Positions 1,350-56,300 of a stretch of 64,000 nucleotides of DNA are shown here, piece by piece; position 1 is the first letter of the stretch, and every line of letters starts with the position of its first letter. The position numbers and the translations under genes are program-made. The notes under the pieces are model-generated. The model was given only the letters and a program-made list of their open reading frames with translations, was not told the origin of the DNA and searched no databases. Source of the DNA: Escherichia phage vB_EcoM_VR20; sequence record NC_028894.1; one strand, written 5' to 3'.

Positions 1350-3329
1350 ATGGCTTTATTATCCCCGGGCATTGAGCTCAAAGAAACAACGGTCCAAAGC
1401 ACTGTTGTTCGTAACGCGACGGGTCGTGCGGCGCTGGTTGGTAAATTCCAGTGGGGCCCAGCTTTCCAGGTAACTCAGATTACAAACGAAGTGGAACTTG
1501 TCGATTTGTTTGGTGGCCCGAACAATATTACGGCTGACTACTTTATGAGTGGAATGAACTTCCTTCAATATGGTAATGACCTGCGCACAGTTCGTGTTGT
1601 TAACCGTGAATTTGCTAAAAACGCATCCCCGGTAGCAGGGAACATCGAAAGTACAATCGCTACTGCTGGTTCTAACTATGCAGTCGGTGACGCTATCCAG
1701 GTTAAATACAACCAGACTGTTGTTGAAACTTCTGGCCGTATCACCAAGGTTGACGTTGACGGGAAAATCCTCGCGGTCTTCATTCCGTCTGACAAAATTA
1801 TTGCCTTTGCAAAATCTGTAAACCAGTATCCTGCTTTAGGCCCGGCTTGGACTGCTGAAATCCTGACCACTTCTTCAGGTGTGTCTGGCACGATTACCCT
1901 CGGGAAAATTGTTACCGATTCCGGTATCCTGTTGACCGAAGCGGAAAATAGTGAAGAAGCTATTACCTCTCTGGAATTCCAGGCTTCCCTGCAGAAATAT
2001 GCAATGCCAGGTGTTGTTGCTCTTTATCCTGGTGAAATCGGCTCGACTCTCGAAGTTGAAATCGTTTCCAAAGCTGCTTATGATGCTGGCGCTTCGAAGA
2101 TGCTTGACATCTATCCGAATGGCGGTTCCCGTGCTTCTGTAGCTCGTGCAGTGTTTAACTATGGGCCACAGTCTGACGACCAGTATGCAATCATCGTTCG
2201 CCGTGATGGTGCTATCGTTGAAAACGTTGTTCTGTCAACTAAAGAAGGTGATAAAGACGTTTACGGCAACAACATTTATCTGGATGACTACTTTGCAAAA
2301 GGTACTTCCAATTACATCTATGCAACTTCTCTGAACTGGCCAAAAGGTTTTGCAGGCATCATCAATCTGATGGGCGGTATTTCTGCAAACGACCAGGTTA
2401 CCGCTGGTGATTTGATGCAAGGTTGGGACCTGTTTGCTGACCGTGAAGCACTGCATATTAACCTGCTTATCGCTGGTGCTTGTGCTGGTGAAGGTGATGC
2501 GACTGCTTCCACTGTTCAGAAGCACGTAGTTTCTATCGCTGACGAACGTCAGGATTGCTTGGCATTTATCTCTCCACCGAAAGGTCTGTTGGTTAACGTT
2601 CCCCTGACCCGTGCAGTGGATAACCTGATTGACTGGCGTACAGGTAGTGGTGCATTTGATACTGATAACATGAATATCAGCACGACTTATGCAGCGATTG
2701 ATGGCAACTATAAATATCAGTATGATAAATATAACGACGTTAACCGTTGGGTTCCTCTGGCAGCTGATATGGCTGGTCTGTGTGCTCGTACTGATGATGT
2801 TTCTCAGCCTTGGATGTCTCCGGCCGGCTATAACCGTGGTCAGATTCTGAACGTTCTGAAATTGGCTGTTGAACCACGTCAGACCCAGCGTGACCGCATG
2901 TATCAGGAAGCTATCAACCCGGTTGTTGGTTTCGCAGGTGGCGATGGTTTTGTTCTGTACGGTGATAAGACTGCAACTAAAGTTCCATCTCCGATGGACC
3001 ATATCAACGTTCGCCGTCTTACGAATATGCTGAAGAAAAATATCGGTGACGCATCTAAATATAAACTGTTTGAGCTTAACGATAACTTCACTCGTGCATC
3101 ATTCCGTATGGAAACTTCTCAATACTTGGATGGTATTCGTGCACTCGGTGGCATTTATGAAGGTCGTGTGGTTTGTGATACTACTAACAACACCCCGTCG
3201 GTCATAGACCGAAATGAGTTTGTTGCTAGCATTTATTTTAAACCTGCGCGCAGCATCAACTACATCACTCTTAACTTCGTGGCAACAAGCACGGGTGCAG
3301 ATTTTGATGAGTTGATTGGACCACAATAA
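1350..3329 (+). CDS. 18: contractile tail sheath protein
   Basis: 659 aa, T4 gp18 size, and position after gene 17. Confidence 0.95.
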   Translation: MALLSPGIELKETTVQSTVVRNATGRAALVGKFQWGPAFQVTQITNEVELVDLFGGPNNITADYFMSGMNFLQYGNDLRTVRVVNREFAKNASPVAGNIESTIATAGSNYAVGDAIQVKYNQTVVETSGRITKVDVDGKILAVFIPSDKIIAFAKSVNQYPALGPAWTAEILTTSSGVSGTITLGKIVTDSGILLTEAENSEEAITSLEFQASLQKYAMPGVVALYPGEIGSTLEVEIVSKAAYDAGASKMLDIYPNGGSRASVARAVFNYGPQSDDQYAIIVRRDGAIVENVVLSTKEGDKDVYGNNIYLDDYFAKGTSNYIYATSLNWPKGFAGIINLMGGISANDQVTAGDLMQGWDLFADREALHINLLIAGACAGEGDATASTVQKHVVSIADERQDCLAFISPPKGLLVNVPLTRAVDNLIDWRTGSGAFDTDNMNISTTYAAIDGNYKYQYDKYNDVNRWVPLAADMAGLCARTDDVSQPWMSPAGYNRGQILNVLKLAVEPRQTQRDRMYQEAINPVVGFAGGDGFVLYGDKTATKVPSPMDHINVRRLTNMLKKNIGDASKYKLFELNDNFTRASFRMETSQYLDGIRALGGIYEGRVVCDTTNNTPSVIDRNEFVASIYFKPARSINYITLNFVATSTGADFDELIGPQ

Positions 3330-3364
3330 TTATCATCGCTTGGAATGAATTAATCAGTTAGAAA

Positions 3365-3415
3365 CCGTAGAACCATTATACAGTGTTATAAATAAAAGCA
3401 TAATCGGTTCTACGG
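3365..3415. promoter_or_regulatory. 10-bp perfect inverted repeat (CCGTAGAACC / GGTTCTACGG) around a late-promoter box, with a minus-strand GCTTTTA-N12-TATAAT element
   Basis: Seen directly in the 18-19 intergenic region. Confidence 0.45.
3387..3394 (+). promoter_or_regulatory. late promoter box TATAAATA
   Basis: Exact match inside the 18-19 intergenic palindrome. Confidence 0.5.
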
Positions 3416-3473
3416 ACTCCTGTGGTTGATTCTGGGAAGCCATTATCTTGAGATGATGAATCATATTACCTAG

Positions 3474-3481
3474 TATAAATA
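3474..3481 (+). promoter_or_regulatory. late promoter TATAAATA upstream of gene 19
   Basis: Exact box about 50 nt before the gene 19 ATG. Confidence 0.7.
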
Positions 3482-3533
3482 CATGCATCAGGGACGCGTT
3501 CGCGCGACCTGTGTCTATAAAGAGGATTCCTTA

Positions 3534-4025
3534 ATGGAGTTGACCGATATCACACGCGCTTTCGAATCCGGCGACTTTGCTCGCCCTAACCTGTTCGAAG
3601 TCGAAATCCCATTCCTGGGTAAAAACTTTGCTTTCCATTGTAAAGCAGCCCCGATGCCAGCAGGCATTGTAGAAAAAGTTCCGGTCGGTTACATGAACCG
3701 TAAAATCAACGTAGCGGGTGACCGTACATTTGATGACTGGACTATTACGATTTATAACGACGATGCTCATAAAGTTCGTCAAGCAATTGTTGATTGGCAA
3801 AATCTGTGTCACGGTATGACTAACGAAATTACCGGTGCAGCTCCTGCTGATTATAAGAAAACTGCTACTGTCCGCCAGTTCCATCGTGATGGCAAAACTG
3901 TTACGAAAGAAGTTGTTATTACCGGCATGTGGCCAACCAACGTTGGGGAAGTCCAGATGGATTGGGACAGTAATAACGAAATTGAAACGTTCGAAGCAAC
4001 GTTCGCAATTGACTGGTGGGAATAA
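3534..4025 (+). CDS. 19: tail tube protein
   Basis: Start placed at the internal ATG after AAAGAGGA; gives 163 aa, the T4 gp19 size. Confidence 0.9.
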   Translation: MELTDITRAFESGDFARPNLFEVEIPFLGKNFAFHCKAAPMPAGIVEKVPVGYMNRKINVAGDRTFDDWTITIYNDDAHKVRQAIVDWQNLCHGMTNEITGAAPADYKKTATVRQFHRDGKTVTKEVVITGMWPTNVGEVQMDWDSNNEIETFEATFAIDWWE

Positions 4026-9853: not shown

Positions 9854-11134
9854 ATGGCAAAGATTAACAAATTACTGCGCGAGTCAACTACCACTACCAG
9901 CAACTCCTTGGGCCGCCCGAATCTTGTTGCTTTGACCCGTGCTACAACCAAATTGATTTACCGCGATATCATCGCTGAACAACGTACTAACCAGCCAGTT
10001 GCGGCTCTGTACGGTGTTAAATATCTTACTCCTGATAATGAATTCAGTTTCCAGACTGGTGCTACTTATGGTGGTGAAGTTGGTTCAAAAGACCGTACAA
10101 CTATTCCGGAATTTACAACCCCAACTCAGGCCGTAGCTAAAGGTGGATACATTAAATTCCAGAATATCGTTTATAAAGCTCTGGTTGATAATCCATTTGC
10201 ATCGACCACAGAAACAGTATTATCTGATGTTCTACAGGAAGGTCTTGTTGCATTAACTATTCGTTTAGTTCCTGATGCTGCACACACCGAAAAATTTGAA
10301 GCTGGTGATGTTGAAATTAGTAACGCTGTATTCCAGGTTAATAAATGGAATGCTCCTGTTAAATCCCGTAAATTGAAAACTGCATTAACTGTTGAGCTTG
10401 CTCAGGATATGGAAGCAAATGGCTTTAATGCTCCTGCGTTCCTGGAAGACCTGCTTGCTACTATTATGGCAGATGAAATTAACAAGGATGTTCTTCAGTC
10501 TCTTATTACCGTTTCCAAGCGTTATAAAGTAACTGGCGTTTCTGACAATGGCACCATCGATTTAACATATGATGCAGCTCCAGAAGGTGCACGTAAACTG
10601 TACGAACTGGTTTGCGAAATGAACTCCGAAATTCAGAAAACTACATCTTATTCCGGTACCTTTGTTGTTGCCTCCAGCCGTGTTGCTGCTATGTTGGCTG
10701 GTTCTGGCTGGCTGAAGCATAAACCTGAAGACGAACAGTGGCTTCCTGAAACAGCGTACGGTTATTTGATTAATGGTCTTCCTGTATTCTGTGATGTTAA
10801 CAGTCCATTGGATTATGTAACCGTTGGCGTTAAAGAAAATTACGGTGGAAACGAAGTCGTAGGCTCAATCTTCTATGCTCCTTATACCGAAGGCCTGGAC
10901 TTAGATGATGAAGAACACGTAGGTGCGTTTAAGGTCATTGTGGACCCAGACAGCTTGCAGCCATCTATCTCCCTGATGGTTCGATATGCGCTTTCAGCTA
11001 ACCCTTACACCGTTGCTAAAGACGACAAAGAAGCTCGTATTATCGATGCAACTAATATGGATTTAATGGCCGGCCAGAGCAATATGTCTTATCTGCTCGG
11101 TGTTAAACTTCCGCCAATCATTTATGAGGCGTAA
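9854..11134 (+). CDS. 24: capsid vertex protein
   Basis: 426 aa; N-terminus MAKINKLLRESTTT matches T4 gp24 as recalled. Confidence 0.95.
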   Translation: MAKINKLLRESTTTTSNSLGRPNLVALTRATTKLIYRDIIAEQRTNQPVAALYGVKYLTPDNEFSFQTGATYGGEVGSKDRTTIPEFTTPTQAVAKGGYIKFQNIVYKALVDNPFASTTETVLSDVLQEGLVALTIRLVPDAAHTEKFEAGDVEISNAVFQVNKWNAPVKSRKLKTALTVELAQDMEANGFNAPAFLEDLLATIMADEINKDVLQSLITVSKRYKVTGVSDNGTIDLTYDAAPEGARKLYELVCEMNSEIQKTTSYSGTFVVASSRVAAMLAGSGWLKHKPEDEQWLPETAYGYLINGLPVFCDVNSPLDYVTVGVKENYGGNEVVGSIFYAPYTEGLDLDDEEHVGAFKVIVDPDSLQPSISLMVRYALSANPYTVAKDDKEARIIDATNMDLMAGQSNMSYLLGVKLPPIIYEA

Positions 11135-12418
11135 ATGCAAAAGATTAACGCACTAATTCACGAATCAACATTAACGGCGGCCAACCAGGTCGCCCGTCCT
11201 AATTTGCTTTCTTATACTCAGGCCACGAATAAACGAATTTTTAAAGCACTCGTGGCCGAACAGAAAACTACTCAGCCAGTTGCAGCGTTGTATGGTGTTC
11301 GTGTTCTGAACCCAGATGATAAAATGACATATCTTGGTGGAGCAACGTTTGCGGGTCAAATTGGTATGTTCGAGCGTAAGAATATTCCAGAATTTACAAA
11401 CAAAGACGAAGCTTATGCAGTCGGCGATATGTTCCAGTTTGAAAGTGTTGTGTTCAAAGTTTTGGAAGCATCACCATTCGCCGGGACTCTTGAAACTGAT
11501 TTGGGTGAAGTTATTTCTGAAGCCATTGCTGCTGGCCATATAAGAATGATGTCGGATGCGGCTTTCACTGATAAATTTGAACAAGGTCATCCTGAAATTG
11601 CTGAAGCCGGTTTCCGTATTGATAAATGGCAGACCGAAGTCAAATCCAGAAAGCTGAAAACTTCTTTAACGGTCGAGCTTGCACAGGACCTGGAAGCAAA
11701 CGGTTTCGATGCAACAGACTTCATTGATAATATTCTCGGTATTCAGATGGCAGAGGAAATTAATAAGGATGTACTGCAATCCCTTATTACTGTCAGTTCT
11801 CGCTTCAAGGTGCAAGGTGTTTCTGAAAAAGGTGTATTGAATCTAACTGACCCGAAATATGATAACGCTCAGGACCGTGCGCGAACCCTGTATTATTATA
11901 TGTGTGAAATGAACTCCGCAGTTCAACGTCAGACTTCGTTTGCTGGTACATATGCAGTCGCTTCTTCCCGGTGTGCAGCTATTTTAGCAGCTTCTGGTTG
12001 GGTTGAGAAAAAGGAAGACCAGGATGAATTAGCCTATGGCGTTCTGAAGAACGGTTTACCACTTTATGCAGATATGAATAGTCCATGTGATTATGTTATT
12101 GTTGGTGTAAATGCTGATATGGGTGAAGGTCAGACGGTCGCATCTTTGTATTATGCGCCTTATACGGAAGGACTTAGTGAAGTTGATGATGAGGGTGATA
12201 CCTCGGTCGGGGAATTCAAGGTTATTGTTGACCCTGAAAGCTTGCAGCCTACTGTTGCGCTATTAGCTCGTTATGCATTGACAGCGAACCCTTATACGGT
12301 TGCGAAAGATGATAAAGAAGCTCGCATTATTGATGGTGCTGATATGGATAAGATGGCCAACCAAAGCCAATTGAGTTCTTATCTTGGTGTTAAACTTCCA
12401 CCACTGGAAAAAGAATAA
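11135..12418 (+). CDS. second capsid vertex protein, tandem paralog of gene 24
   Basis: 427 aa; clearly homologous to the upstream gp24 over its whole length; starts right after the gene 24 stop with GAGG upstream. Confidence 0.9.
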   Translation: MQKINALIHESTLTAANQVARPNLLSYTQATNKRIFKALVAEQKTTQPVAALYGVRVLNPDDKMTYLGGATFAGQIGMFERKNIPEFTNKDEAYAVGDMFQFESVVFKVLEASPFAGTLETDLGEVISEAIAAGHIRMMSDAAFTDKFEQGHPEIAEAGFRIDKWQTEVKSRKLKTSLTVELAQDLEANGFDATDFIDNILGIQMAEEINKDVLQSLITVSSRFKVQGVSEKGVLNLTDPKYDNAQDRARTLYYYMCEMNSAVQRQTSFAGTYAVASSRCAAILAASGWVEKKEDQDELAYGVLKNGLPLYADMNSPCDYVIVGVNADMGEGQTVASLYYAPYTEGLSEVDDEGDTSVGEFKVIVDPESLQPTVALLARYALTANPYTVAKDDKEARIIDGADMDKMANQSQLSSYLGVKLPPLEKE

Positions 12419-13444: not shown

Positions 13445-13540
13445 AATCTCTCACTTTTGATGTTATAAATATCATTATAAATTAGACCCACTATACTTTC
13501 TTTCTCTGAAAGGAATTAATAGTCACAAAGGGGTCTAGAA

Positions 13541-13575
13541 CCATTATACCACAATTTTATTTTAAGCAAAAAGGT
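13541..13575 (-). promoter_or_regulatory. middle-promoter-like element (GCTTAAA-N12-TATAAT, then GGTTCTAGACCC)
   Basis: Minus strand upstream of rnlB; same downstream block as the uvsY promoter. Confidence 0.45.
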
Positions 13576-18562: not shown

Positions 18563-18600
18563 GGTCTAGAACCATTATACAGCCATAAAATTAAAGCATT
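18563..18600 (-). promoter_or_regulatory. MotA-type middle promoter for uvsY (GCTTTA-N12-TATAAT)
   Basis: Minus strand GCTTTAATTTTATGGCTGTATAATGGTTCTAGACCC; uvsY is a middle gene in T4. Confidence 0.55.
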
Positions 18601-29898: not shown

Positions 29899-30180
29899 TT
29901 AGTCGTTGGCTCTATTATATGCCACATCTTCCAAAAGCAAATCCAGACGCTTATGATAAGAGAACACAAATCTCATTCGCCCATCTGGTTTAAACTTAGA
30001 CATAAAGTGAACATAGATAAACCCTTGCTCAACGCATTCACGCCAAACCGGATGGTCTTTGGCTGGGTTAATATCAAACGAGTAATCATGATTCACATGA
30101 CGAATAAACTGATTAACATGGCCATAATCCATGGTAGTAGTAGGACCGTAATCAGAAATAGTATGAACGACAAACATCAA
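29899..30180 (-). CDS. hypothetical protein, 93 aa (30.1 position)
   Basis: ORF and synteny. Confidence 0.6.
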   Translation of the reverse strand: MMFVVHTISDYGPTTTMDYGHVNQFIRHVNHDYSFDINPAKDHPVWRECVEQGFIYVHFMSKFKPDGRMRFVFSYHKRLDLLLEDVAYNRAND

Positions 30181-53302: not shown

Positions 53303-53359
53303 ATGAACCTCTGTTCAATTAGTTGACTCGATTATATTAGCATAAAATTTTTAAAGCAA

Positions 53360-53367
53360 TATAAATA
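53360..53367 (+). promoter_or_regulatory. late promoter TATAAATA upstream of gene 34
   Basis: Exact box about 30 nt before the gene 34 ATG. Confidence 0.7.
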
Positions 53368-53397: not shown

Positions 53398-56300
53398 ATG
53401 GCCGATATTTTAAAACCAGCATTCAGAGCAACATCCGGTCTCGATGCTGCTGGTGAGAAAGTCATTAATGTCGCGAAAGCTGATTACTCAGTTTTGTCAG
53501 ACGGCGTTAACGTAGATTTCTTTATAGAAGAAAACACAGTTCAACAATATGATGCAACGCGCGGATACAAAAAGAACTTCGCAGTTATTAATGATAACCG
53601 TATTTGGGTTGCTCAGCGTGATATTGATGCTCCAGCAGGAGCATTTACCCCTCAGTATTGGTTAGCAACCCGTACTGACCCTAAATGGGAAACTGTTGCA
53701 TCTCCAACTCGTCAGCTTAATTCAGGTGAATTTATCGCAGTCGACTCAGCTGCAAGCTTTACCACATTTACATTGCCTCCGAACCCGACTGATGGTGATA
53801 CCATCGTTATTAAAGATATCGGCGGCAATACTGGTTATAATGAAATCAAAGTTCAATCGAGCAACGTGCCTGGTCAAGGTAACCAAAAAATTGTTCGTTT
53901 TGGTAATCAGTATTCAGAAGTTTTAATTACCAAACCGTTCTCTTATAATATGCTTATTTTCTCCAACCGCCTTTGGCAGTTCTGGGAAGCAGGTAACGAA
54001 GAACGCGGAATAAGAATTGAACCAAGCTCTGGTAAATATCGAACTCAAGCATCAGATTTTATTATGCGTCATTATACGACTGCAGAAAAAATTACATTTG
54101 TTCTTCCTAAGTATGCTAACCAAGGTGATATTGTCAAATCGGTAGACATAGATGGATTAGGGCCATTATATCACCTGGATGTTGAAACGTTTGACGAGTC
54201 AAGCTCTCTGGGTAAACAGGGCCAACACAGTATGGAATTCCGTACAACTGGTGATGGCTTCTTCGTGTATAACGCAGTTGAAAAACTGTGGGTAACCTGG
54301 GACGGTGATAACAAAACTCGTTTGCGTGTAATTCGTGACAATGTAAAATTGTTACCAAACGAAAGTATCATCGTGTTCGGTAATGATAACAACACCTCGC
54401 AGACAATTAACATTGACCTTCCAACAGGTGTTCGTCAGGGTGATGTTGTTAAGATTGCTCTGAACTATCTCCGCAAGGCACAGACGGTTAATATTAGAGC
54501 TTCGGCTACTGATAAAATTGCATCTTCTGTTCAGTTGCTTCAGTTCCCGAAACGTTCGGAATATCCGCCGGACACTGAATGGGTATTTGTTGACTCTTTG
54601 ACTTTCAATGGTAATATAAGTTATACTCCGGTTATTGAATTAAGTTACATGGAAGATACGGTTAATAACATTAACTACTGGGTTGTTGCTCAGAACGTTC
54701 CGACTATTGAGCGTGTTGACTCGAAGGATGATTTGACCCGTGCTCGTCTGGGTGTTATTGCATTAGCTAACCAGGCTCAGGCTAACGTTGACCATGAAAA
54801 TAACCCTGAAAAAGAATTAGCAATTACCCCGCAGACTTTGGCTAACCGTGTGGCTACTGAATCACGTCGTGGTATTGCACGAATTGCTAACACTGCCCAG
54901 GTGAACCAGGATACGACTTTTGCTTTCCAGGACGACATCATCATCTCTCCGAAAAAGTTAAACGAACGTACAGCTACAGAAACACGTCGTGGTGTCGCAG
55001 AAATCGCCACACAACAAGAAACTGATGCAGGCACTGATGATACTACCATCATCACTCCACGCAAGCTACAAGCTCGTCAGGGCTCAGAAAGCCTATCTGG
55101 TATCGTTAAGTATGTTCCTACTACCGGGACTACTCCAGCGACTTCTAGAGCAACTATAGGTACTAACGTTTATAATAAAAATACAACTACTCTGGTAATT
55201 TCTCCGAAAGCTTTGGACCAATATAAAGCTGACCAGAACAACCAAGGTGCTGTATATCTGGCTACTCAGTCAGAAGTTAACGCGGGGGCAACAAATACAG
55301 GATTCAGTAACTCGGCAGTGACTCCTGAAACATTAGGTGCCCGCAGAGCAACAGATTCAAACCATGGTTTAATCGAGATTGCAACTCAAGCAGAAGTTAA
55401 TACAGGAACCGATTATACCAGAGCTGTGACTCCTAAAACGTTGAATGACCGTAAAGCAACAGAATCATTATCCGGCATAGCCGAGATTGCTACGCAATCA
55501 GAATTTGATAGTGGTACTGATGATACTCGTATTGCAACGCCATTAAAAATTAAAACTAGACTGAATGATACTGCTCGTACTTCTGTTATTGCAGCAAGTG
55601 GTTTAGTAGAAACAGGGACGCTCTGGGACCATTATACGCTGAATATTCTTGAAGCAAATGAGACTCAACGTGGCACCGCAAGACTGGCTACTCAACTTGA
55701 AGTTAATACTGGTACTGACGATAAAACAATCGTTACTCCGCTTAAGTTGATGTCGAAAAAAGCCACAGAAGGCACCGAAGGTATTGTTCGCATCGCTACT
55801 CGTGCAGAAACTATCGCAGGAACAAGTTCAATCCTGGCTGTTTCTCCGGTTAGTCTGAAATGGATTGCACAGTCCGAACCAACATGGGCAGCAACCACGA
55901 CGACCCGCGGCTTTGCTAAGATGTCTGAAGGCGCAATTACTTTTGTCGGTAATGCAACTGCAGGTTCGACCCAGGCTCTTGACCTGTACGAGAAAAATAG
56001 CTATGCTATCTCTCCGTATGAGTTAAACAAAACCCTTGGTAACTTCCTGCCGCGTTTGGCTAAAGCAGCAGACTCGGATAAACTGGATAACCTGGATAGC
56101 ACGCAGTTCATTCGTCGTGATATTGACCAAATCGTTGAAGGTACATTAACCCTTAGAAAGAACATAAGAGTTGATGGTCAGCTGGCGACTGGTGGTACCG
56201 GTGAATTTGGCGGCTCGTTGGCGGCTAACTCCACATTTACTATACGCAACACAGGAACTCCGACCCGTATCGTTTTCGAAAAAGGTCCTGCCTCCGGTGC

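Follow-up and report, generated by a model that had tools for sequence, protein, structure and literature searches.

What occupies the spacer between the tail sheath gene (gene 18) and the tail tube gene (gene 19) of Escherichia phage vB_EcoM_VR20, and on which strand is it read? The window analysed here is a 64,000-nucleotide stretch of the genome record NC_028894.1; its source is a T4-like phage of the genus Gaprivervirus, which over positions 3000-3900 shares 99.7% identity with Escherichia phage P896 and 92-97% with SP18, VR25 and VR7. The spacer is 204 bp long and includes a 51-bp block (3365-3415) that had been singled out by a sequence-only reading of the window, according to which a perfect 10-bp inverted repeat surrounds about 30 bp with a plus-strand late box in the loop. 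The coordinates and sequences of this repeat proved exact, and the late box TATAAATA is indeed found at 3387-3394. Judging from the sequence, we lean towards the view that the block combines three overlapping signals, namely a MotA-type middle promoter directed against gene 18, a late promoter directed towards gene 19, and the version of the gene 18 hairpin that is proper to this genus. The features on which this view is built are collected in Table 1.

A predicted MotA-type promoter on the minus strand

Read on the minus strand, the block presents in succession TGCTTTT (3400..3394), the spacer ATTTATAACACTG, TATAAT (3380..3375) and GGTTCTACGG, with GGTTCTA directly after TATAAT. The same bases had been described previously as GCTTTTA-N12-TATAAT; the bases stand, and the register shifts by one, the MotA box being TGCTTTT followed by N13. 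In T4, the MotA box (a/t)(a/t)(a/t)TGCTTtA lies near -30, 12 +/- 1 bp from a sigma-70 -10 element; deviations from the box are tolerated, and an excellent -10 (TAnnnT, consensus TAtaaT) is required (PMC2988021). The site in VR20 unites such a -10 with a MotA box and a spacing within 12 +/- 1, in a genus that encodes motA and asiA (163695-164303 and 161352-161627, respectively, in the annotation of the congeneric VR25; the counterpart region is located outside the window). When the alignment is anchored on the -10, its spacing of 13 bp is that of T4 PuvsY and T4 P34i, and the GCT of the box lines up to within 1 nt across 14 elements, both validated T4 promoters included. Validated T4 middle promoters deviate from the box consensus far more than the candidate does, and the TGCTTTT variant recurs at other strong Gaprivervirus sites. 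The start was registered on the mapped starts of T4 PuvsY (115371, at the A directly after TATAATGAATCT) and T4 P34i (153011), and is predicted at A3368.

The pattern TGCTT-N13..15-TATAAT occurs five times in the window, every time on the minus strand, which is the direction of the early and middle genes, against a mean of 0.215 and a maximum of 2 in 200 dinucleotide shuffles. The 13-mer TATAATGGTTCTA is present in exactly three copies, again all on the minus strand (0.01 in shuffles): at 3368-3380, at 13536-13548 upstream of rnlB and at 18567-18579 upstream of uvsY. The likeness to the uvsY and rnlB promoters that the sequence-only reading had pointed out is thus borne out by an exact string common to all three sites. 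With the PuvsY homolog of the window, the candidate has 16 contiguous bases in common, CTGTATAATGGTTCTA. Of the five TGCTT-N13..15-TATAAT sites, two are clear homologs of T4 promoters that double as plasmid-tested replication origins: T4 PuvsY, a validated MotA-dependent promoter, is oriF, and T4 P34i, likewise validated, is oriG. The PuvsY spacer measures 12 bp in Gaprivervirus. The oriG homolog differs hardly at all from T4 over some 45 bp; its position inside the gene 34 homolog was derived from the offset to the VR25 annotation. A promoter of the MotA type on the minus strand is therefore a reading supported by sequence statistics and homology, as well as by the conservation described below.

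A plus-strand middle promoter at CATAAT (3399-3404) was rejected: no GCT-type box stands at the right distance, and the only -35-like element is a weak TATACA (TATACA-16-CATAAT, 9/12, spacing 16).

Table 1. Positions of the elements discussed, in window coordinates unless another genome is named
Feature	Position	Strand	Sequence and remarks
Gene 18 (tail sheath)	1350..3329	+	target of the predicted antisense RNA
Left arm of palindrome	3365..3374		CCGTAGAACC; invariant in 17 Gaprivervirus genomes
Left arm, minus-strand reading		-	GGTTCTACGG; -6 to +4 of the predicted middle promoter, from just past the -10
Predicted minus-strand start	A3368	-	seven bases past the -10; registered on mapped T4 starts
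-10 hexamer	3375..3380	-	TATAAT; perfect sigma-70 match
Palindrome interior	3375..3404		ATTAT and ATAAT at its ends extend the stem
Spacer of predicted middle promoter	3381..3393	-	13 bp, ATTTATAACACTG; contains 7/8 late-box bases
T4-type late box	3387..3394	+	TATAAATA; between the arms
MotA-box-like decamer	3394..3403	-	TTATGCTTTT; 9/10 to wwwTGCTTtA
Right arm of palindrome	3406..3415		GGTTCTACGG; invariant in 17 genomes, absent from VR26
Second late box	3474..3481	+	TATAAATA; 52 nt upstream of gene 19 ATG, outside the palindrome
Gene 19 (tail tube)	ATG 3534	+	behind Shine-Dalgarno AAAGAGGA
Middle-type promoter upstream of rnlB	13536..13568	-	TGCTTAA-N13-TATAATGGTTCTA
T4 PuvsY/oriF homolog	18567..18598	-	TGCTTTA-N12-TATAATGGTTCTA; between gene 25 stop (18599) and uvsY ATG (18545)
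Fifth TGCTT-N13..15-TATAAT site	29939..29914	-	TGCTTTT box, as in the candidate
T4 P34i/oriG homolog	55624..55656	-	TGCTTCA-N13-TATAATGGTCCCA; antisense inside the gene 34 homolog
TATAATGGTTCTA copy in VR25	73694 (73674-73745)	+	TGCTTTA-N13; between gene 3 and a MobB-like endonuclease gene
TATAATGGTTCTA copy in VR25	11029 (10960-11045)	+	CGCTTTT-N12; srd-modA spacer
Relaxed motif, JS98 group (Dhakavirus)		-	CGCTGTA-N13-TATAAT-GGTTTTA; long 18-19 spacer
Relaxed motif, Klebsiella F48 group (Marfavirus)		-	TGCTAAA-N13-TATAAT-GACTTCA; long 18-19 spacer
Enclosing repeat, Gaprivervirus			CCGTAGAACC/GGTTCTACGG
Enclosing repeats, JS98			GCTGTAA/TTACAGC plus CCCAGGC/GCCTGGG
Enclosing repeat, F48			ACCTGAAGTCAT/ATGGCTTCAGGT
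Gene 19.1, VR7	1898-2503 of locus L001
Gene 19.1, VR26	2037-2720 of locus L002
Gene 19.1, further loci	L003; L022; L046; L180		L180: JS98-group contig

Late boxes and the palindrome

The window contains 20 TATAAATA boxes (4.2 expected). Two of these lie between genes 18 and 19, as is likewise the case for the late boxes of T4, and the one proximal to gene 19 is part of an invariant block (3461-3533). The distal box is almost entirely embedded in the spacer of the predicted middle promoter, its eighth base, 3394, falling in the MotA box. Late transcription, which in T4 is of the gp55/gp33/gp45 type and coupled to replication, would presumably start near 3400, about 6 nt past the box, on the late-promoter geometry that we assume; late transcripts would thus carry only the right arm of the palindrome. 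Of the 20 boxes, only that at 3387-3394 is flanked by the arms of a 10-bp repeat, which means that late promoters are not generally built in this way. The gene 19 leader further includes a plus-strand hairpin of its own (3489-3511, CAGGGACGCG-TTCG-CGCGACCTG). It has a loop of the UUCG type and is placed past the proximal late box and ahead of the ribosome-binding site; in relatives its loop is TTCG or TACG and a few stem positions vary.

The arms of the palindrome are complementary at 10/10 positions and separated by 31 bp. In RNA, pairing of ATTAT (3375-3379) with ATAAT (3400-3404) would extend the stem to 15 bp, with C3405 bulged; the hairpin starts 36 nt past the gene 18 stop codon. The predicted folds reach -18.6 kcal/mol for the plus strand (z -2.9) and -25.9 kcal/mol for the minus strand (z -5.75). 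The right arm would occupy about +7..+16 of transcripts from the late promoter in the loop, and about -38..-47 of the minus-strand promoter. An intrinsic (rho-independent) terminator, which would have a G+C-rich stem, a short loop and then a U-tract, was rejected because the loop is long (21-31 nt) and because the sequence directly past the stem, ACTCCTGTGG, has no U-tract; a terminator scan returned a separate, weak 6-bp candidate at 3410-3425. Pairing further inside the hairpin is not supported, because position 3386 takes all four bases in the genus.

Rfam returned no family for the block, the sole match being a spurious snoRNA (E = 0.89). Palindrome scans of viral and metagenome contigs recovered VR25 only, plus unrelated chance hairpins with the same arms, and therefore added no diversity, while a scan of viral contigs for GTATAATGGTTCTA gave non-specific matches among the matches listed.

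Conservation within Gaprivervirus and the polymorphic gene 19.1

The block was compared in 17 Gaprivervirus genomes, 13 of which are without gene 19.1, which codes for 201-227 aa and is found between the gene 18 stop and the palindrome in some genomes but not in others. Both arms, the MotA box, the spacer length, the -10 and the late box are invariant in all 17 genomes. Position 3386 is the sole variable one among the 13 genomes without gene 19.1; a G/A difference at 3383 and two extra nucleotides after 3402, ahead of the MotA box, are confined to the genomes that carry the gene. In the 13 genomes, 1 of the 51 columns of the block varies, versus 18 of 80 columns in the intergenic flanks (Fisher p = 0.0007).

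In VR26 the right arm is lost and the left arm degenerate, leaving no palindrome, and a separate GGGGA..TCCCC hairpin is found directly after gene 18; nevertheless, TGCTTTT-N13-TATAAT and the late box are kept within CCATTATACCGTGTTATAAATAAAAGCATAA. The TATAAATA box of this core is the only one between the gene 18 stop and the start of gene 19.1, and gene 19 begins 3 nt after gene 19.1. The gene 19.1 of VR26 is a different version, inserted downstream of the core in place of the right arm and of the second late promoter. That of VR7 has its own hairpin, GCGCGTA-tgatataaa-TACGCGC, enclosing a late box.

The gp19.1 protein belongs to phrog_5104; a DH...N...N motif resembling those of His-Me/HNH nucleases was recognized by eye, and there is a weak endonuclease-VII-like match, with no match in Pfam. 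In two genera the junction between presence and absence of the gene lies about 15 bp from the left arm. The spacer around it is a mosaic: comparison of 3330-3364 and 3416-3460 with the loci L001, L003 and L022 indicated that, in the VR7 clade, the palindrome block and 3461-3533 are kept and the 45 bp between them replaced by unrelated sequence. The last codons of gene 18 differ in that clade as well (GGACCACAATAA vs GGGGTGCAATAA), as would be expected close to a homing or recombination junction.

This vicinity raises the question of whether the palindrome might be a DNA site bound by a protein, either gp19.1 itself (as its homing target or operator) or a dimeric regulator recognizing GGTTCT half-sites. 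The invariance of both arms amid varying flanks and the short distance to the gene 19.1 junction would fit such a site, and T4 intron endonucleases do bind operators overlapping their own promoters (PMC2988022). The half-sites are, however, 41 bp apart from centre to centre, VR26 manages without one arm, and JS98-type phages combine a homologous gene 19.1 with entirely different arms. The block is identical with and without gene 19.1 and hence is not a target destroyed by insertion. Considering also how faint the nuclease resemblance of gp19.1 is (no match in Pfam, a weak one to endonuclease VII), we regard a protein-bound palindrome as very unlikely.

Related elements in other T4-like genera

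Of 79 T4-like loci collected around gene 19, 65 were scanned for a strict match of the nGCTT type on the minus strand of the 18-19 spacer; VR25 alone had one. A relaxed motif, nGCTnnn-N13-TATAAT-G, was recognized by eye and by folding at the same site on the minus strand in the JS98 and F48 groups, both of which have long 18-19 spacers. The PuvsY of JS98 has a similarly unusual box, TGCTGT(T/A), resembling the CGCTGTA of its 18-19 element, so that in both Gaprivervirus and Dhakavirus the 18-19 element resembles the PuvsY of its own genus.

In the three genera, the same -10 core is enclosed by three unrelated inverted repeats. The F48-type repeat is annotated as a 'terminator' in Klebsiella phage PhiKpNIH-6 (129048-129078). 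T4 and ten other T4-like loci that were read have a different hairpin just after gene 18 (11/11). We read this as a conserved hairpin at the 3' end of gene 18 that houses a putative antisense promoter in three genera and, in Gaprivervirus alone, a late box too. The sequence-only reading had offered a processing site as an alternative to the promoter; given the hairpin in 11/11 other loci and the annotated terminator in the Klebsiella phage, this is probably also true, and is no longer a rival.

A further explanation would be chance, an accidental palindrome and an accidental promoter-like string in an AT-rich spacer. In its favour, perfect 10-bp inverted repeats with loops of 3-60 nt give five matches at three loci in the window, compared with 6.0 +/- 3.4 in 100 shuffles, and the same arms turn up in unrelated metagenome hairpins. 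The palindrome alone is no rarer than chance. The difference in conservation between block and flanks, the excess of the promoter pattern (5 vs 0.2 expected) and of the 13-mer (3 vs 0.01), and the recurrence of the motif at the same site in three genera speak against coincidence, which we consider highly improbable.

Plus-strand functions alone?

Several observations weigh against the threefold reading of the block. The MotA box ends in T where the consensus has A, and a spacer of 13 bp is the longest allowed. Downstream there is no gene on the minus strand, hence no obvious product to express, and the late block of T4 from gene 3 to gene 24 (75393-109763) is without any listed middle promoter. 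The plus-strand late box can partly account for the conservation of the core, and the conserved plus-strand string CAUUAUAC could alternatively be an RNA loop motif. As to the hairpin, the chance-level frequency of the palindrome has been mentioned; the invariance of the 10-nt right arm, taken by itself, is not significant (about 0.08, an estimate from the rate of variation in the flanks). RNAalifold, applied to 16 Gaprivervirus sequences, found an invariant stem and no compensatory pairs in the hairpin; as the stem never varies, the genus offers no compensatory evidence for pairing. Outside the genus, T4 and 53 of the 65 other T4-like loci scanned have no TGCTT-type match at the site, the strict pattern is likewise missed in three further Dhakavirus loci, and the TGCTAAA of F48 doubles as the T-rich tail (TTTAGCA) of the annotated terminator. 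In the papers searched, neither promoter mapping for VR7, SP18 or JS98-type phages nor a report of anti-late RNA was found; antisense reads are not treated in the T4 omics paper.

Alternatively, the block might serve the plus strand only, the hairpin ending or stabilizing the gene 18 mRNA and the late promoter serving gene 19. The minus-strand promoter would then be a silent look-alike, owing to the resemblance of the reverse complement of AT-rich late-promoter DNA to sigma-70 and MotA signals. The general occurrence of a hairpin after gene 18, the terminator annotation of the F48-type homolog, the stability of the plus-strand fold, and the lack both of a middle promoter here in T4 and of a minus-strand gene to be served are all in line with this, as is the presence of TGTTATAAATAAAAGCATAAG (late-promoter-like, then a ribosome-binding site and ATG) on seven viral contigs without a minus-strand TATAAT. 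Such a look-alike would not explain why the five TGCTT-N13..15-TATAAT sites are all on the early/middle strand, nor the 16-base identity with PuvsY, which spans start-site bases that the hairpin does not require. Moreover, TATAAT and GCT at N13 are kept in three genera with unrelated arms and in VR26, which has lost the hairpin, and the hairpin itself is without a U-tract. On balance, a purely plus-strand role seems to us unlikely, and we retain the combination of antisense middle promoter, late promoter and hairpin.

Opposing copies of the 13-mer and possible replication origins

The search for TATAATGGTTCTA was extended to about 111 kb of VR25 (1-96600 and 156000-170822), combined with the 64-kb window into one composite census that partly overlaps at both joins. 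It produced two further exact copies, both pointing against the surrounding genes. The copy at 73694 of VR25 is enclosed by a perfect 9-bp inverted repeat, CAGTGTTAT/ATAACACTG; that at 11029 stands back to back with a minus-strand early-type promoter, the two jointly forming a 15-nt imperfect inverted repeat. Together with the candidate, which also opposes its neighbours, three of the five exact copies are thus in antisense orientation, and two of these three follow closely, in some genomes at least, on a free-standing gene of the nuclease type.

A minus-strand promoter without a gene to express invites the thought of replication: its transcript would remain annealed as an R-loop and prime the leading strand, making the 18-19 spacer an additional origin and recombination hot spot. 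By the definition of an oriF/oriG-type origin (PMC3016281), the block has, at the level of sequence, the MotA promoter. Both defining T4 examples are of the MotA type, their homologs in the window are among the closest relatives of the candidate, and oriG is antisense within a late gene; the block, in addition, sits at mosaic breakpoints and beside a polymorphic nuclease-gene insertion. As to an A+T-rich unwinding element past the start, the 60 bp downstream of 3368 are 65% A+T and rank in the window's 82nd percentile for duplex instability, but this measure is not discriminating, the oriG homolog being at the 41st percentile and the oriF homolog at the 99th. Furthermore, the promoter at the rnlB position has the same 13-mer, yet T4 PrnlB is not an origin, and neither are most of the approximately 58 T4 middle promoters (PMC2988021, PMC3016281). 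An active origin in this spacer is accordingly improbable in our estimation. We think it just as improbable that the neighbour-opposing PuvsY-like copies in general (the one in the 18-19 spacer, conserved across three genera, and the two in VR25) are extra R-loop origins of the oriF/oriG type and recombination hot spots; if they were, this would explain why they have no gene to express, why mosaic breakpoints are found there and why two of the three come shortly after a free-standing nuclease-type gene.

Comparison with known regulatory elements

The closest parallel to the antisense middle promoter proposed here is T4 P34i/oriG, likewise a MotA-type middle promoter opposite a late tail gene, with an RNA antisense to that gene; in the words of its record, the 'primer RNA is opposite direction of adjacent gene 34'. 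Its sequence, TGCTTCA-N13-TATAAT-GGTCCCA, has the register and -10 of the candidate and similar bases past the -10. P34i differs in that it is situated within a coding region, has no late box in its spacer and gives rise to a proven replication primer, whereas the candidate is intergenic, overlaps a late promoter, is enclosed in a palindrome and is predicted only; no search for an enclosing hairpin was made at P34i. PuvsY/oriF and the candidate are alike in the box, TGCTTT(A/T), and in the predicted start at the same A, seven bases past the -10. PuvsY, however, drives uvsY in the sense direction, whereas the candidate has no minus-strand gene downstream.

Late promoters within RNA hairpins are known from T4 I-TevI, I-TevII, I-TevIII and segB and from Aeh1 mobE, and also from soc, e, 25 and 26; read-through transcripts can fold into such hairpins, and late-initiated ones cannot (PMC2988022). 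The VR20 block shares with the I-TevI/segB/mobE/e/soc type the TATAAATA promoter between two arms. It differs in that the right arm is more than 100 nt upstream of the Shine-Dalgarno sequence and ATG of gene 19, with no ribosome-binding site in 3400-3420; a ribosome-binding-site switch as in this family was rejected because the right arm is far from any such site.

With PeSL, the composite terminator/early-promoter cassettes of T4-type phages (PMC2839356, PMC4122927), the block has in common that a small conserved regulatory unit of stem-loop and promoter stands where close relatives differ by insertion, deletion or replacement; here it borders the gene 19.1 polymorphism and the replaced downstream segment. 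PeSL, however, comprise a sigma-70 early promoter with a -35, in the same direction as the genes, and belong to hyperplastic early regions, whereas the candidate combines a late promoter with an antisense middle-type promoter in the core late region. The only co-directional match to a -35-type early promoter in the block is the weak 9/12 one mentioned above, and we do not count the block among PeSL. Finally, the terminator of PhiKpNIH-6 likewise follows immediately on the gene 18 stop, and there is a minus-strand TATAAT within the F48-type hairpin too; unlike a terminator, the Gaprivervirus hairpin has promoter signals in a long loop and no U-tract.

Other features of the window

A comparable juxtaposition was observed at 53334-53367, where a late box on the plus strand (53360-53367) adjoins a MotA-type site on the minus strand, TGCTTTA-N12-TAATAT (53358..53334). 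The two form a divergent late/middle pair at a transcription-unit boundary; the arrangement resembles the 18-19 element but has genes on both sides. Two minus-strand ORFs (open reading frames) near the candidate were rejected as genes. One, of 255 aa with an ATG start (2235..3002), is antisense within gene 18 in the exact codon-complement frame, in which stops arise only from TTA, CTA and TCA codons, and is thus a by-product of codon usage in a highly expressed gene; the other, of 21 codons just downstream of the predicted start, is not conserved. Elsewhere, two head vertex gene 24 paralogs stand in tandem on the plus strand (9854-11134 and 11135-12418; 426 and 427 aa, 57% identical, E = 8e-176), at a position where SP18 and T4 have a single gene 24.

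A proposed middle-to-late switch and its implications

If the reading towards which we lean is correct, the site would operate as follows. During the middle period, MotA would recruit AsiA-remodelled sigma-70 RNA polymerase, which would begin at about A3368 and transcribe leftwards. The resulting RNA, a non-coding one, would be antisense to gene 18 at its 3' end or, in relatives of the VR7 type that carry gene 19.1, to this nuclease-like gene instead. The sequence-only reading had likewise proposed an antisense RNA, placed early in infection; the promoter part of that proposal fits the sequence, but the timing would be middle rather than immediate-early. Later, the late box, almost wholly within the middle-promoter spacer, would start transcripts near 3400 towards gene 19. 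As the two predicted starts face away from each other at a distance of 32 bp, binding of one polymerase complex should preclude that of the other, and the output of the site would then change from antisense in the middle period to sense in the late one.

Both arms would be present only in plus-strand RNA that reads through from gene 18, which could fold into the 15-bp hairpin, most likely a barrier at the 3' end or a processing site. The antisense RNA may pair with this read-through RNA, or prime replication as at oriF and oriG (PMC3016281). We infer the promoter activity, the start sites, the mutual exclusion and the roles of the antisense RNA and of the hairpin from these arrangements. As far as can be judged from the sequence, each part is an element of a familiar kind at a new location, and what is unusual is the nested arrangement; with no middle promoter listed in T4 between 75393 and 109763, the location is new relative to T4.

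Should the minus-strand promoter prove inactive, what remains would be a conserved hairpin behind gene 18 that contains a late promoter, an ordinary arrangement. If it is active, at least three T4-like genera would make a middle-period RNA antisense to the sheath gene or to the inserted nuclease gene, and T4 would be without the site. Having a middle and a late promoter in the same 30 bp on opposite strands, the block would provide a compact case for competition between the MotA/AsiA and gp55 forms of polymerase. A review of T4 replication lists as an open question whether the R-loop mechanism operates at origins beyond oriF and oriG (PMC3016281), and the element bears on which middle promoters can act as origins. 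More broadly, the spacers of the late block in these genomes would not be purely late-transcribed.

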